From a virus (lineage: Duplodnaviria; Heunggongvirae; Uroviricota; Caudoviricetes), in the IMG/VR virus record IMGVR_UViG_2541047430_000021: a stretch of DNA of 12,502 nucleotides; one strand, 5' to 3'. A program made the position numbers and the translations under genes. Below, piece after piece: positions 1-9,718 of the stretch. The notes beneath the pieces are model-generated. The model was not told the DNA's origin. It saw only the letters and a list, made by a program, of their open reading frames with translations, and searched no databases. The number at the start of each line of letters is the position of its first letter. Positions within the stretch are counted from its first letter, which is position 1.

Positions 1-387
1 GTGGGCCCGTCGTCCGTCTGGCACCATCCATCACAGCGATAAAGGCTCTCAGTATGTGTCACTGGCCTATACGGAGCGACTAGAAGAAGCCGGATTACTG
101 GCATCAACAGGGAGTACAGGCGACTCGTATGACAACGCGATGGCTGAGAGCATCAATGGTCTTTACAAAGCGGAGGTAATACACCGTAAGAGCTGGAAAA
201 ACCGTGCAGAAGTGGAACTGGCCACACTAACGTGGGTGGACTGGTATAACAATCGACGATTGCTGGGAAGGCTGGGCCATACTCCTCCGGCAGAAGCAGA
301 AAAAGCTTATTATGCTTCCATCGGAAACGATGATCTGGCAGCCTGAGTTCACAGATAAAGCACTCTCCAGGAAACCCGGGGCGGTTC
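1..387 (+). mobile_element. IS3-family insertion sequence, right-hand portion (continues left of the window); right end approximately 385-390
   Basis: Transposase ORF ends at 346. The minus-strand rusA-like frame loses RusA-like sequence (DLDNILKAPLD then unrelated EPPRVSWRVLYL) at about 385-390, placing the IS/prophage junction there. The exact terminal inverted repeat cannot be confirmed without the left end. Confidence 0.65.
2..346 (+). CDS. IS3-family transposase (OrfB, DDE/integrase core), C-terminal part; 5' partial
   Basis: The frame is open from the window edge; translation WARRPSGTIHHSDKGSQYVSLAYTERLEEAGLLASTGSTGDSYDNAMAESINGLYKAEV... carries the HSD(K/R)GSQY and DxYDNA(x)AES motifs typical of IS3-family OrfB. 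Stop TGA at 344-346. Confidence 0.85.
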   Translation, partial: WARRPSGTIHHSDKGSQYVSLAYTERLEEAGLLASTGSTGDSYDNAMAESINGLYKAEVIHRKSWKNRAEVELATLTWVDWYNNRRLLGRLGHTPPAEAEKAYYASIGNDDLAA

Positions 388-624
388 ATCCAGTGGTGCT
401 TTCAGGATATTGTCCAGGTCACGACGGCGCTTATCCGGTGGCTCTGCAATAATCTTTATCACCAGCCTTCCGGACAGGTTTAATTTCAGCCGCTGCTGGC
501 GAACAATAAGTGCCACATCCCGGCGATAACGCTCACCGGCTTTTGATACAAAATATGTGCAGCCACGACGTCGCCAGTAGGTGTTCACCGTCGGCGGGTA
601 AGGCAAAACAAACACTATACGCAT
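349..624 (-). pseudogene. rusA: rusA-like Holliday junction resolvase, 3'-truncated by the IS insertion
   Basis: ATG at 624-622 with GAGG SD 7 nt upstream. N-terminal ~79 aa (LPYPPTVNTYWRRRG..., PDKRRRDLDNILKAPLD) resemble E. coli RusA (LPWPPSNNRYYR..., PDRRRRDLDNLQKAAFD); the last ~12 codons are IS-derived. Confidence 0.75.
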
Positions 625-2133: not shown

Positions 2134-2289
2134 TTACTCCTCAGGTTCGTAAGCTGTGAAGACAGCGACCTCCGTCTGGCCGGTTCGGATTCGTACCTCG
2201 CAGAGGTCTTTCCTCGTTACCAGTGCCGTCACTATGACGGTAATACAGATGACGATCAGGGCGATTAACATCGCCTTTTGCTGCTTCAT
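2134..2289 (-). CDS. hok: Hok-family type I toxin (51 aa membrane peptide)
   Basis: Translation MKQQKAMLIALIVICITVIVTALVTRKDLCEVRIRTGQTEVAVFTAYEPEE is near-identical to HokD/RelF as I recall it. AGGAG SD 9 nt upstream of ATG at 2289-2287. An in-frame upstream ATG at 2346 with its own GAGG SD could be a mok-like start. Confidence 0.9.
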   Translation of the reverse strand: MKQQKAMLIALIVICITVIVTALVTRKDLCEVRIRTGQTEVAVFTAYEPEE

Positions 2290-2338
2290 AGCCTGCTTCT
2301 CCTTGCCTTTCGGCGCGTAAGAGGCTAACCTACATGTG

Positions 2339-2410
2339 TCTAGCATGAAATTGGCCTCAGATTAATGTTAGGCGTCTTGCAGGACGCGTAATGTTAACTG
2401 GGGCTTTTCT
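2339..2410 (+). ncRNA. putative Sok-like antisense RNA (hypothesis)
   Basis: Plus-strand region antisense to the SD and ATG at 2346-2362. Candidate promoter TTGCCT(2304-2309)-17 nt-TAACCT(2327-2332). Hairpins at 2372-2387 (GCGTC-TTGCAG-GACGC) and CCUCAG...CUGGGG, followed by a U-rich tail CUUUUCUCU. Boundaries are inferred, not measured. Confidence 0.3.
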
Positions 2411-2464
2411 CTGTCTGCCTTACGGTGGCATGCCCGAGGCAGACAGCCTCAAGCACCCGCAGCA

Positions 2465-6759: not shown

Positions 6760-7058
6760 GAATCAACTCCATCAGATAAGCATGCACTACAATCACCTTC
6801 AGCATGAACTACATGTGTTTGCCCCAAACGAATGCCGCTCGCATACTCAGGCCAAATAAGCTCCCAATCATGGGGTCGTAGCTCCGCCCTACTTACTTGG
6901 CCTTCCGTCGCAGATTCGATCATAAGGGCGCGGGTTGGAGATATAGCTGTTCGTCCAGACGCCATTTGCGATAAGTAAGATGGCGATACACCAAGTCTGG
7001 CCGCGAATTTCTTAGCATCACCAACCCTTAATGATTTAATAAACTCTTTTAATGTCAT
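6756..7058 (-). CDS. Cro-like HTH protein (YdaS-like), first gene of the early-right operon
   Basis: Translation MTLKEFIKSLRVGDAKKFAARLGVSPSYLSQMASGRTAIS... is a Cro/CI-type HTH. GAGGAAGG SD before ATG at 7058. Divergent from the regulator gene. Confidence 0.8.
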   Translation of the reverse strand: MTLKEFIKSLRVGDAKKFAARLGVSPSYLSQMASGRTAISPTRALMIESATEGQVSRAELRPHDWELIWPEYASGIRLGQTHVVHAEGDCSACLSDGVDS

Positions 7059-7064
7059 ACCTTC

Positions 7065-7150
7065 CTCGGTTTAGTGTTTTTTTGCGAGTTTAGTGTTTAA
7101 TAAACCATTAAGTCAAGTATTTGCTTGTTTAGTGATTACTAAAGATAATT
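7065..7150. promoter_or_regulatory. OR-like divergent promoter/operator region
   Basis: Minus-strand promoter: -35 TTGACT (plus 7111-7116), -10 TAAACT (about 7087-7092). Plus-strand promoter: -35 TTGCTT (7121-7126), 17 nt, -10 GATAAT (7144-7149). GTTTAGTG motifs at 7069, 7088 and 7127; near-palindromes GTTTAATAAAC (7094-7104) and TTTAGTGATTACTAAA (7128-7143). Confidence 0.5.
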
Positions 7151-7155
7151 ACCAC

Positions 7156-7527
7156 ATGCAAAAAAAAGAAATTCGCCGTTTACGTCTCAAGGAGTGGTTT
7201 AAAGATAAAACTCTGCCACCCAAAGAGAAGAGCTACCTATCTCAACTAATGAGTGGGAGAGCCTCGTTTGGAGAAAAGGCTGCCAGAAGAATAGAGCAAA
7301 CATACGGGATGCCGGAAGGGTATCTGGATGCGGAATACGCAGAACAACCGGGGGGTTCTCCACCACATGCAGGGTTAACGTCTAATCAACTGGAATTATT
7401 GCAGATTTTTTCAGCCTTCCCTGAGGATGAGCAACGCCAGATAATCAGCGAGTTAAAGCAGAAAAAAGAATCAATGGAAGATCTCATAGCGAGATGGATT
7501 GCGGCGCAAAAATGCCGCCGCGCCTGA
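7156..7527 (+). CDS. CI-position HTH regulator (PaaR2-like), probably leaderless
   Basis: ATG at 7156 lies ~7 nt after the GATAAT -10 and has no SD. HTH-like segment KSYLSQLMSGRASFGEKAARRIEQTYGMPEGYLD. The ORF-track start at 7093 is a GTG inside the operator region. Confidence 0.65.
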   Translation: MQKKEIRRLRLKEWFKDKTLPPKEKSYLSQLMSGRASFGEKAARRIEQTYGMPEGYLDAEYAEQPGGSPPHAGLTSNQLELLQIFSAFPEDEQRQIISELKQKKESMEDLIARWIAAQKCRRA

Positions 7528-7547: not shown

Positions 7548-7739
7548 ATGAATAGAGCCCTTTCACCAATGGTTTCTGAATTTGAAACCATTGAACAAGA
7601 AAACAGTTACAACGAATGGCTGCGTGCGAAAGTAGCAACGAGCCTTGCAGATCCGCGCCCAGCAATTCCCCATGACGAAGTTGAGCGCAGAATGGCAGAA
7701 CGCTTTGCTAAGATGCGCAAGGAACGGAGCAAGCAGTAA
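7548..7739 (+). CDS. paaA2: ParE-associated antitoxin (PaaA2-like, 63 aa)
   Basis: GGAGG SD 5 nt before ATG 7548; 63-aa product directly upstream of the ParE toxin gene (1-nt gap). Length and arrangement match my recollection of the three-component paaR2-paaA2-parE2 system; the symbol is assigned from memory. Confidence 0.7.
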   Translation: MNRALSPMVSEFETIEQENSYNEWLRAKVATSLADPRPAIPHDEVERRMAERFAKMRKERSKQ

Positions 7740-7740
7740 A

Positions 7741-8019
7741 ATGTTACCCGTGTTATGGCTTGAAAGCGCAGATACCGACCTAGATGATATAACTAGTTAT
7801 ATTGCTCGTTTCGACATAGATGCGGCTGAACGCTTATGGCAGCGATTAAGGGGTTGTGTGCTGCCGTTATCCGAACATCCGTATTTATACCCACCAAGCG
7901 ACAGAGTACCTGGCTTGCGTGAGATTGTAGCCCACCCTAACTATATAATTCTATACCGCGTAACAACATCAAGCGTTGAAGTAGTAAACGTGATCCACGC
8001 AAGACGCCAGTTTCCCTAA
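7741..8019 (+). CDS. parE2: ParE/RelE-superfamily toxin (92 aa)
   Basis: Translation MLPVLWLESADTDLDDITSYIARFDIDAAERLWQRLRGCVLPLSEHPYLYPPSDRVPGLREIVAHPNYIILYRVTTSSVEVVNVIHARRQFP shows the ParE/RelE pattern (PG-RE-V--P-YIILYRV----V-V--V-HARR). Confidence 0.85.
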   Translation: MLPVLWLESADTDLDDITSYIARFDIDAAERLWQRLRGCVLPLSEHPYLYPPSDRVPGLREIVAHPNYIILYRVTTSSVEVVNVIHARRQFP

Positions 8020-8043: not shown

Positions 8044-8101
8044 CAACCGCAACGACTTTATCAAAAGCGTTGTGTTTGTTATGTCCCGCGGTTTAGTTTT
8101 T
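8044..8101 (+). terminator. possible terminator of the regulator-TA operon (tIMM-like), weak
   Basis: Imperfect 13-bp stem AACAACCGCAACG / CGTTGTGTTTGTT (one mismatch, one G-U) with a 13-nt loop, followed by the T-rich GTTTAGTTTTTA. Confidence 0.3.
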
Positions 8102-8135
8102 ACTTGACTTAAGTTTAATGTTTATTAAACTAAAA
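8085..8135 (+). promoter_or_regulatory. OL/PL-like promoter-operator for the plus-strand early-left operon
   Basis: -35 TTGACT (8104-8109), 16 nt, -10 TAAACT (8126-8131). Palindrome GTTTATTAAAC (8120-8130) and GTTTAGT/GTTTAATG motifs (8090, 8113) echo those in the OR-like region. Confidence 0.45.
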
Positions 8136-8449
8136 ATACCAACCCACCCCGCCCCACAGAACGCAGGGAAATACTTCGAGTTACCCGGCAGTGGTCAGGG
8201 GTTAAGTAGCCAGCCCGAGGCGTATGAACATGACGGCAGGGTTCAACTTTAATAACTATGCAGCAGTTTTTTGTTCCGCTACCCCGGCGTTAAGGGGAAA
8301 CAGAGGGTTTCTCAGTGGGCGAAGTCAAACATCAGAATGGAAGGCATCCCGGGATCGGCAAAGAAGCAGCAATGGCGCTTTATATTGACATCAGCGCCAT
8401 TGCAGGACAGGTAAGAGTTATCAGAGCGGTAACTAAGCGGTATGCGCCT

Positions 8450-8650
8450 TTACTTCAGAAAGTCTCTGGTGAGTGCACCGAAGATATTGTCAACGATTTC
8501 GTCATCGAACTGCGAGGACTCATCTTCAGTTACAAGGTGACCACAATTTTTGCAGATGGCTCCCGCGAAACTGTCAGAGCCCTGCGGCTTAAAGGATGTG
8601 TCAAAGACTTCGCCACCACATTCTGGGCAAGAAAACTTGATTGTATTCAT
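8450..8650 (-). CDS. small zinc-ribbon protein (66 aa)
   Basis: ATG at 8650 with GAGGA SD 8 nt upstream; MNTIKFSCPECGGEVFDTSFKPQGSDSFAGAICKNCGHLV... carries two CxxC pairs. Oriented opposite to the surrounding early-left genes. Confidence 0.55.
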   Translation of the reverse strand: MNTIKFSCPECGGEVFDTSFKPQGSDSFAGAICKNCGHLVTEDESSQFDDEIVDNIFGALTRDFLK

Positions 8651-8742
8651 AACCAATTTCCTCTCGAGTAACAGACCCCTCAGAGGATACCACCTCGCCT
8701 GACGTGGTTAAAAGCAGGCAACGCTAACCACAAGGAGCCGAC

Positions 8743-8961
8743 ATGCAGAAACGAGAACCCGTCATCATCGCGCCAGACTATACCGATGATGAACTTTATG
8801 AGTGGATGCACCAGAAAATTAATGCAGCGCAGGATCTGAAATGGGCCAATGAAGCCAGGGCTAAGCAGGCTGAAAATCTGTCCGCTCTGGAGCAGGATAT
8901 CACCAATCTGGAAAAAGCAGCGGCATTAAGCATTGCCAGAATGATTACATACCCGCGTTAA
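8743..8961 (+). CDS. hypothetical early-left protein (72 aa)
   Basis: AAGGAG SD 5 nt before ATG 8743; translation MQKREPVIIAPDYTDDELYEWMHQKINAAQDLKWANEARAKQAENLSALEQ... is predicted helical. Confidence 0.6.
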   Translation: MQKREPVIIAPDYTDDELYEWMHQKINAAQDLKWANEARAKQAENLSALEQDITNLEKAAALSIARMITYPR

Positions 8962-9317
8962 TAGCTAACCAACGAAGCTAAGGTTGGTAATTAAGGAGTT
9001 CTCCACGGGTGAGGTGGAGTGCGTGCGCCGGACACGGGTGAGCATACGGCACTGACAGTTTACTGAAAGGATATTTCCCTGAAAAGTCAGACCATAACGC
9101 GAAAGCGCACGGCGAGGTAGCTGGTTCATAGATAGCCTGTCGTTAAATTTTCGTCGACCGTGCGCTTCCGGTTGTGGCAATCCGCGAAATGGCGCGGCGG
9201 TAAGTATGGAGGGGTTATTCCTTCCCCCGTTGAGGACACCGGGTTGTCAGGTTGACCATACGCTTAAGTGACAACCCCGCTGCAACGCCCTCTGTTATCA
9301 ATTTTCTGGTGACGTTT

Positions 9318-9360
9318 GGCGGTATCAGTTTTACTCCGTGACTGCTCTGCCGCCCTTTTT
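9318..9360 (+). terminator. terminator-like hairpin plus T5 run (tL-like), weak
   Basis: GGCGG (9318-9322) ... CCGCC (9350-9354) with inner CAG/CTG pairing, followed by TTTTT (9356-9360). The loop is long, so efficiency is uncertain. Confidence 0.3.
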
Positions 9361-9529: not shown

Positions 9530-9718
9530 ATGGAAACGTTATTACCAAACGTTAATACGTCTGAAGGTTGTTTTGAAATTGGTGTCACTATCAGTAACCC
9601 TGTATTTACTGAAGATGCCATTAACAAGAGAAAACACGAACGGGAGCTATTAAATAAAATATGCATTCTTTCAATGCTGGCCCGTTTACGTCCGATACAA
9701 AAAGGATGCTGGCAATGA
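9530..9718 (+). CDS. hypothetical early-left protein (62 aa)
   Basis: GAGGA SD 7 nt before ATG 9530; stop TGA 9716-9718 overlaps the next start (ATGA). Confidence 0.5.
   Translation: METLLPNVNTSEGCFEIGVTISNPVFTEDAINKRKHERELLNKICILSMLARLRPIQKGCWQ

Follow-up and report, generated by a model that had tools for sequence, protein, structure and literature searches.

A probable antiparallel gene pair and its database families

The subject of this analysis is a window of 12,502 nucleotides (nt) of viral DNA (Caudoviricetes; IMG/VR record IMGVR_UViG_2541047430_000021), in which two open reading frames (ORFs) occupy opposite strands of the same DNA, downstream of the early-left promoter of a prophage. 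Positions 8050-9000 are 100% identical to prophage Sp12 of Escherichia coli O157:H7 Sakai and to many other O157 genomes, and CP-933P of EDL933 has been stated to be identical to Sp12 (PMC8630535). Sequence comparison indicates, with a probability of about 0.8, that the locus is a conserved antiparallel pair, in which the gene of a putative zinc-ribbon protein (ECs_2282, here the Zn gene) is fully embedded in a gene of the other strand (the plus gene), and in which both strands code for protein. The features of the pair are the following:

8450-8650, minus strand: Zn ORF (ECs_2282), 66 amino acids (aa) from the ATG at 8650; putative C4 zinc ribbon with an acidic C-terminal helix
8658-8665, minus strand: Shine-Dalgarno (SD) sequence of the Zn ORF, GAGAGGAA, 7 nt before the ATG
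8372-8671, plus strand: plus gene, 99 aa from the ATG at 8372; first ORF after the early-left promoter PL933P
8315-8371, plus strand: possible N-terminal extension of the plus gene, from a GTG start at 8315 preceded by AGAGGG at 8302-8307; 118 codons in total

The Zn protein reads MNTIKFSCPECGG...CKNCGH..., with CPEC at residues 8-11 and CKNC at residues 33-36, and the ORF listing also gives it an alternative TTG start (8450-8656, 68 aa). The earlier note on this DNA had described a minus-strand ORF of 66 aa with a good SD sequence and two CxxC pairs, overlapped by a plus-strand ORF of 118 codons at 8315-8671; all of these elements are present, and the Zn ORF lies wholly within the plus ORF. 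The codons of the two frames are in register, with position 1 of the Zn codon facing position 3 of the plus codon and position 2 facing position 2, an arrangement in which antisense stops arise solely from TTA, CTA or TCA codons. Given the codon usage of the window itself, a frame antisense to either ORF would be expected to stay open in this register with a probability of 0.03-0.19 per lineage, and, because such frames are not rare, a single sequence cannot decide which of the strands codes.

The plus gene may start at either ATG 8372 or GTG 8315. In the window, the GTG has the better SD sequence, yet the 19-codon extension is poorly conserved, being open but highly variable in the E. coli-type homologues (P0019-P0025) and absent from the other lineages. 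The ATG aligns to within 2 codons of SD-preceded ATG starts at five other loci (L084, L085, L088, L091 and L003), where GGAG-type motifs precede the start.

A homology search of both translations, as proposed in the earlier note, returned a family for each strand. The Zn ORF is ECs_2282 (NP_310309.2), the namesake of NCBIfam NF047912, which it matches with 57.3 bits against a cutoff of 37 (E=1e-15, with residues 4-59 covering positions 1-56 of the 60-position profile). It has the two CxxC pairs expected of this family of ~60-66-aa proteins, as C8, C11, C33 and C36, and these four residues recur in all 10 of the diverged lineages compared below. The plus ORF is phrog_21318, matched over the full length of the profile (E=3.9e-67; residues 20-118 on positions 1-99 of 99), and even its divergent member P0040 is recovered by this profile (E=3.3e-16). 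No paper treating the ECs_2282/plus ORF pair was found in the literature, and what appears to be new is that NF047912 and phrog_21318 are the same DNA, with both frames under selection.

Functional assignments are sparse for both proteins. In Pfam, the Zn protein has only sub-threshold zinc-ribbon matches and the plus protein none, profile searches of the PDB found no relative of either, and PADLOC reported nothing significant for exclusion or defence families (best E-value 0.002). The N-terminal zinc ribbon of phrog_4852, an unrelated and larger phage family, does match the Zn protein moderately well (E=1e-9); the Lar-like phrog_6422 reaches E=0.0098 with no stretch significant on its own, and no Lar family was found in Pfam (E<=0.01). 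The structural model of the plus protein, with a predicted local distance difference test (pLDDT) score of 69.7, is arranged as helix-helix-helix-strand-strand-helix and matches generic helical bundles only.

The public annotation of the locus is divided. The zinc ribbon is annotated in Sakai and TR01, where the Prokaryotic Genome Annotation Pipeline (PGAP) and NCBIfam name ECs_2282 only, and the plus ORF is annotated in CP027582, CP173573, the second copy of EDL933, and the phages Evi and vB_EcoS-640R1, with the protein records WP_001240336.1 and WP_042046576.1; in CP173573, this is the case despite an intact Zn ORF. None of the public records compared has both ORFs annotated. These opposing annotations would be explained by the fact that both strands appear to code.

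O157:H7 genomes carry two copies of the module, in different prophages, and the annotated strand can differ between the two copies of a single genome. The second copy of EDL933 (locus L209, NZ_CP008957.1 1848502-1848801) has the E14* allele of the Zn ORF and a plus-strand annotation, whereas in the Sp12/CP-933P copy the Zn ORF is intact. Because of this duplication, short-read expression data are ambiguous for the module. The locus tag ECs2282, furthermore, first named another 54-aa plus-strand ORF (window 8224-8388; old Sakai coordinates 2249591-2249755, with an old-to-new offset of +136), and was later moved to NP_310309.2, so that the "ECs2282" of older expression tables refers to the leader of the early-left promoter (PL) and to neither gene of the pair. 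The entry of that name in Hücker 2017 was considered as evidence for expression of the Zn gene and rejected for this reason, since it is the ORF of the old annotation at 8224-8388 on the plus strand.

Conservation and selection in the two frames

Homologues of the Zn protein occur at 53-84% identity in Citrobacter, Klebsiella, Enterobacter, Serratia and metagenomes. The plus family is a small family of enterobacterial prophages: from 1.8 billion proteins, its profile recovered no more than 8 representatives when clustered at 50%. A scan of genome contigs gave one locus only, from Serratia, and scans of viral contigs with the P0039 and P0040 queries gave no matches. Two sets of sequences were compared, one of 10 diverged lineages (from E. 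coli, the four genera just named and metagenomes), in which the identity of the plus protein falls to ~38%, and one of 204 loci pooled from several collections, duplicates included, which represent 45 distinct sequences.

Both ORFs are open in 10/10 of the diverged lineages. The plus proteins align almost without gaps, the exceptions being one 4-codon deletion (L003) and one extra codon (L204), and in every lineage this alignment covers ~26 N-terminal codons beyond the stop of the Zn ORF and continues in frame into the overlap. At the locus of P0040, the most divergent plus member (~38% identical to the plus protein of the window), the opposite strand holds an intact 66-aa Zn ORF with the four cysteines and a ribosome-binding site (GAAGGAAG), which had been missed by gene callers.

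No intact Zn ORF with a broken plus ORF was found among the 204 pooled loci, nor was a Zn ORF ever found apart from the plus ORF, so the moron to which the earlier note had likened it does not fit if taken in the classical sense, as a cassette inserted independently between two genes. Several sequence groups have an interrupted Zn ORF and an intact plus ORF, and two sequences (L092 and L173) have both frames broken. The module most often follows a CI-type repressor, as the first gene of the early-left direction. In the Citrobacter and Klebsiella prophages L084 (4001-4285) and L085 (4001-4285), it belongs instead to the early-right operon, where it comes immediately after cro, in a cII-like position ahead of the replication genes. 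The two ORFs move jointly between early-left and early-right (PR) promoter contexts, and the Zn ORF is oriented against the operon in every locus.

Chance expectations were obtained by simulation on the tree, in which the protein of one frame was fixed at the tips, the ancestor had both frames intact and synonymous codons were redrawn, at a turnover rate calibrated on the 25 codons of the plus gene outside the overlap, with 600 runs per null. The two nulls gave:

Only the plus frame codes: Zn ORF open in 2.0 of 10 lineages expected, 10 observed; P(10/10) = 0/600
Only the Zn frame codes: plus ORF open in 2.2 of 10 lineages expected, 10 observed; P(10/10) = 0/600

The first null also predicts an identity of 0.45+-0.02 among Zn proteins, against 0.65 observed (z=10), and ~23 of the 40 cysteine positions conserved (maximum 36), against 40 observed; the second predicts an identity of 0.47+-0.02 among plus proteins, against 0.58 observed (z=5.5). 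At half the calibrated rate, the integrity of the ORFs is still improbable, with P=0.005 when only the plus frame codes and 0/600 when only the Zn frame does. Judged by these comparisons, both frames are intact and co-conserved beyond chance across the diverged lineages.

The imprint of the Zn frame on the plus codons was assessed by parsimony, as the number of changes per site outside and inside the overlap, and by the pairwise differences per site, divided by their effect in each frame:

Plus codon position 1, changes per site: 1.48 outside, 1.65 inside (p=0.55)
Plus codon position 2, changes per site: 1.48 outside, 0.65 inside (p=0.004)
Plus codon position 3 (wobble), changes per site: 2.68 outside, 1.21 inside (p<1e-4)
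Silent in plus, non-synonymous in Zn, differences per site: 0.57 outside, 0.31 inside
Non-synonymous in plus, silent in Zn, differences per site: 0.41 outside, 0.43 inside
Silent in both frames, differences per site: 0.76 outside, 0.85 inside (saturated)

The depletion is limited to changes that alter the Zn protein, which argues that the overlap is not simply younger than its flank. Seven invariant four-fold wobble sites of the plus frame sit opposite C8, C11, G30, C33, C36, G37 and H38 of the Zn protein, the four cysteines of which are kept in 40/40 cases across the 10 lineages by way of TGT<->TGC toggles, just as its stop is kept through a switch between TAA and TAG. The ATG of the Zn ORF and an AGGA/GGAGG-type SD sequence 7-9 nt upstream are conserved in all of the lineages despite diverged flanks, at a point where the plus ORF has already ended in most of them, and variation by Zn codon position follows the order position 3 > position 1 > position 2.

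The reciprocal imprint is also found. In plus codons 2-26, outside the Zn ORF, synonymous differences (pS 0.24-0.69) exceed non-synonymous differences (pN 0.06-0.30) among L084, L085, L088, L090 and L091, which gives an omega of ~0.1-0.4, against 0.8-2.2 for the antisense reading of the same DNA; by this measure, purifying selection acts on the plus frame in the 25 non-overlapped codons. Inside the overlap, the wobble sites of the Zn frame have 1.65 changes per site, compared with 2.68 at free wobble sites (p=0.0009), and in the 9 lineages with Trp85 in the plus protein, its TGG codon holds Zn Pro9 to CCA at the wobble base (L204 has Leu). Ratios of the OLGenie type (pNN/pSN and pNN/pNS) were seemingly significant for both frames and were discarded, given that a control frame that is not an ORF gave 0.59 (0.34-0.98); the comparison of wobble sites inside and outside the overlap and the tree simulations were used in their place.

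Within E. coli, 36 distinct sequences of this type were compared. In the overlap, 16 variants change the plus protein and are silent in the Zn frame (0.42 per site), whereas 6 are silent in the plus frame and change the Zn protein (0.14 per site), three-fold fewer per site. No such imbalance between the classes is seen outside the overlap (0.24 and 0.29). This excess of Zn-silent variants suggests that recent constraint in the overlap has acted mainly on the Zn frame. Natural alleles that break one frame also occur, such as 8611 C>A, which introduces the nonsense codon E14* into the Zn ORF, removing most of the zinc ribbon, and leaves the plus ORF intact with F80L (TTC>TTA) as its only effect. 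This allele is also present in records of the PPompW type and of Stx2a phages, and in the second copy of EDL933.

Promoters, transcription and gene neighbourhood

The plus strand is the direction of the early-left operon, as the earlier note had assigned it, and the PL-like promoter found on it matches the published PL933P, which as a gfp fusion was active and repressed ~100-fold by PaaR2 and YdaS (PMC8630535). The authors of that study of the CP-933P PaaR2/YdaS switch could assign no function to the downstream ORFs (PMC8630535). The signals around the pair are:

8104-8131, plus strand: early-left promoter PL933P, TTGACT-16-TAAACT, with an operator palindrome at 8120-8130
8684-8711, minus strand: candidate Zn promoter, with -35 TTAACC at 8711-8706, a 16-nt spacer, TG at 8692-8691 and -10 TATCCT at 8689-8684
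8697-8719: inverted repeat GCCTG-N13-CAGGC around the candidate -35, between the plus stop and ydfC

The early-left promoter and the promoter on the cro side (7116-7087) share the same -35 and -10 hexamers, TTGACT and TAAACT. Half-sites of the PaaR2/YdaS operator (GTTTAGTAA, <=1 mismatch) have 9 matches, against 1.8 expected by chance, and cluster only at 7036-7144 and 8120-8130, with none found near the candidate Zn promoter. An extended -10 block (TGnTATCYT) ~35 nt upstream of the Zn ATG is conserved in 8/10 lineages, and L084 and L085 have a different promoter-like element, TTGGTG-16-TATATC, at the equivalent place. The candidate fell below threshold in a consensus promoter scan; its conservation suggests that it may function as a promoter, and the earlier note's idea that the Zn gene has a promoter of its own is consistent with this putative element. 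With a candidate promoter that lacks a repressor operator, the Zn gene would probably be expressed in the lysogen.

The inverted repeat is conserved in E. coli, L088, L090, L091 and L003, and in L204 it takes the form GCCGGG-N14-CCCGGC, a compensatory change; a palindrome for protein binding and a hairpin in the plus-strand (PL) mRNA are both conceivable roles. A single weak site (8163-8145) was the only terminator-like site found for the Zn gene. The supplementary tables of EDL933 transcription start sites did not contain the sequence of the candidate Zn promoter, and a preprint by Zehentner on overlapping genes of enterohaemorrhagic E. coli (EHEC) has a bulk BLAST row only, for the truncated EDL933 copy.

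The genes that surround the pair in the window are:

7058-6756, minus strand: ydaS, cro analogue, early-right
6759-6334, minus strand: ydaT, cII analogue, early-right
Further in the early-right direction, minus strand: O-like and DnaC-like replication genes
7156-7527, plus strand: paaR2, CI analogue, early-left
7548-7739, plus strand: paaA2, early-left
7741-8019, plus strand: parE2, early-left
8743-8961, plus strand: ydfC, early-left, downstream of the ORF pair
9304-9355, plus strand: DicF small RNA (Rfam, 76.7 bits), downstream of ydfC
9530-9718, plus strand: dicB, downstream of ydfC
Further in the early-left direction, plus strand: ydfD, followed by the gene of an 823-aa exonuclease

The early-left operon is thus Qin-like (ydfC-dicF-dicB-ydfD), with a different first cassette. 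Between ydfC and dicF, and against the direction of the operon, RefSeq places ECs_5735, a hypothetical protein of 54 aa (8965-9129, minus strand). Elsewhere in the window, there is a type I toxin-antitoxin locus of the hok/sok type (2134-2458, minus strand), where the Rfam sok match (2284-2458, 116.9 bits) overlaps a Hok-like ORF at 2134-2346 (MKQQKAMLIALIVICITVIVTALVTRKDLCEV...), and the left edge carries the truncated C-terminus of an IS3-family-like transposase with an adjoining RusA-like ORF (56-346, plus strand, and 349-624, minus strand; recognized from the translations only).

Rival readings, related systems and significance

The earlier note had framed the locus as a choice between the strands, and each of the single-strand readings has its adherents among the public annotations. 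The current RefSeq view of Sakai amounts to a coding Zn gene and a plus shadow ORF, with the Zn gene avoiding TTA, CTA and TCA codons. This is improbable, given the purifying selection in the 25 plus codons outside the Zn ORF, which continue in frame into the overlap, the opening of the plus ORF in all 10 lineages even at half the calibrated rate, the conserved SD-preceded plus ATG starts, the depressed wobble of the Zn frame, and the survival of the plus ORF where E14* or E44* kills the Zn ORF. It has on its side the naming of ECs_2282 alone by PGAP and NCBIfam, the frequency of shadow ORFs in this codon register, the many plus-frame amino-acid changes tolerated in the overlap within E. coli, and a plus identity that is not above the null at half the rate. 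The converse reading, in which coding is confined to the plus gene and the Zn ORF is its shadow, with CxxC motifs there by accident, is the view of the second EDL933 copy, Evi, vB_EcoS-640R1 and PHROGs, and is equally improbable. The existence of phrog_21318, the several records that annotate the plus ORF alone, a Zn nonsense allele that is common and apparently tolerated, and the failure to find evidence of Zn-strand expression all agree with it. It leaves unexplained a plus wobble depressed more than two-fold inside the overlap only, the seven invariant wobbles opposite Zn residues, the 40/40 cysteines, the Zn ORF open in 10/10 lineages, the Zn ATG, SD sequence and stop conserved outside or independently of plus coding, and the three-fold excess per site of Zn-silent variants in E. 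coli. Omega and the simulations indicate that the plus ORF is a real gene too, so the strands need not be seen as competitors. The earlier note had named, as the sign against the zinc ribbon, homologues that conserve the plus frame with synonymous variation while disrupting the CxxC pairs; the conservation and the synonymous variation are both found, but no missense change breaks a CxxC pair (40/40 cysteines kept), though E14* removes most of the zinc ribbon in ~20% of the E. coli copies.

A third possibility, that the minus strand yields a functional non-coding antisense RNA acting on the plus gene, has a known counterpart in the OOP RNA of lambda (against cII) and the sar RNA of P22 (against ant), which are non-coding cis-antisense RNAs transcribed from a small promoter against an early operon. 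The conserved promoter-like element points into the plus gene, the module of L084 and L085 lies directly after cro, where OOP acts, and the nonsense allele would spare the function of an RNA. A cis-antisense RNA, on the other hand, is complementary by construction and needs no conservation of sequence, and it would not explain a conservation that is patterned by codons (the Cys toggles, the TAA<->TAG switch, the ATG, the SD sequence, the order of codon positions and the Zn-silent excess). Unlike OOP and sar, the antisense transcript of this locus would carry a conserved, SD-preceded ORF of 66 codons, and a purely RNA-based function is very improbable.

A number of observations weigh against protein coding on both strands. 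The E14* allele is present in 39/204 of the pooled loci, duplicates included, and in ~20% of the E. coli copies, and a rarer natural allele, 8521 C>A, introduces E44* into the Zn ORF and is silent in the plus frame (L50L); the occurrence of both means that some prophages, many of them cryptic, can do without the zinc ribbon. The excess of plus identity is gone (z=0.5) once the calibrated rate is halved, and the tests use 10 lineages, 25 control codons, a tree built by the unweighted pair group method with arithmetic mean (UPGMA) and a simplified codon model based on redrawing, while the tests based on NN ratios are biased, as the 0.59 of the non-ORF frame in the control region indicates. The AlphaFold2 model of the Zn protein is poor (pLDDT 53.5) and unusable for structure searches, and it is the motif that suggests zinc binding by ECs_2282. 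No transcription or translation data for the Zn strand were found in the literature, and a ribosome profiling (Ribo-seq) study of Sakai reported no novel gene at the coordinates of the pair, a weak negative, given that the segment is present in two copies and its reads are ambiguous.

A pair of coding genes at this site can be compared with several known systems. In E. coli K-12, ydfA-ydfB of Qin and ydaG-ydaF of Rac occupy the same slot, being the first small genes that follow a CI-like repressor on the early-left side, upstream of ydfC-dicF-dicB or kilR. These are tandem genes of the same strand and unrelated in sequence, whereas the present pair is antisense, and BLAST found no similarity to YdaE, YdaF/G, YdfA/B or KilR of K-12. 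Like the morons and superinfection-exclusion genes such as sieB and rexAB, ECs_2282 is a small, immunity-proximal gene of the early-left region with a promoter-like element free of repressor operators; unlike a moron, it forms no separate cassette between genes and lies inside the plus ORF wherever it was found.

The antisense overlaps of EHEC and Pseudomonas (ano/ECs2385, laoB, asa, pop/ompA and olg1/olg2) are likewise fully embedded, with one of the two ORFs annotated, and in the accessible parts of the reports their support comes from ORF structure, a promoter and SD sequence of their own and, sometimes, purifying selection. Those overlaps are known mainly from RNA-seq, Ribo-seq and phenotypes, whereas the ECs_2282 pair is known from sequence comparison alone. 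Both members of the present pair are already database families, and the embedded one is a recognizable protein of the Cys4 zinc-ribbon type, not an orphan peptide. The antisense overlaps of EHEC and Pseudomonas are, as far as is known, mostly young and taxonomically narrow. In the ECs_2282 pair, both frames are kept over at least 5 genera, down to ~38-50% protein identity, a comparative record of unusual depth.

The geometry of the locus suggests a regulatory role for this arrangement, with the Zn protein made in lysogeny and the plus protein on induction, which must be considered tentative and somewhat short of even odds, while the combination of dual coding with such regulation is judged to be rather probable. 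ECs_2282 would be transcribed in the lysogen from its own operator-free promoter, when PL is off, and either this convergent transcription or the fully complementary RNA would damp any leakage of the plus gene. Once the prophage is induced, strong transcription from PL would override that of the Zn gene, and the plus protein would then be made.

It is also conceivable, if rather unlikely, that one member of the pair was born de novo, overprinted on the strand antisense to the other, with both retained from then on as a two-protein module. The match of the Zn protein to phrog_4852, together with the lack of relatives of the plus protein outside the module, gives a hint that, of the two, it may be the 99-aa plus protein that was overprinted and is thus the younger. 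Were this true, the pair would represent a well-conserved, folded bacterial or phage protein born antisense to an existing gene, accompanied by natural alleles in which a single frame is lost, and the module might also act as a self-contained toggle between lysogeny and lysis.

Protein coding on two strands is rare in bacteria and phages, and is often disputed, given that most cases depend on expression data from single strains. The ECs_2282 pair, if confirmed, would represent an antisense overlap with deep comparative support for both frames, and the existence of single-base alleles, natural or designable, that break one frame and are silent in the other makes the question directly testable. 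In that case, it would also illustrate how annotation rules that allow one gene per locus lead to inconsistent records, and one database holds an unlinked family for each strand. Given its position next to the bistable PaaR2/YdaS switch, this convergent pair is a candidate for an additional layer in the lysis-lysogeny decision of these prophages.

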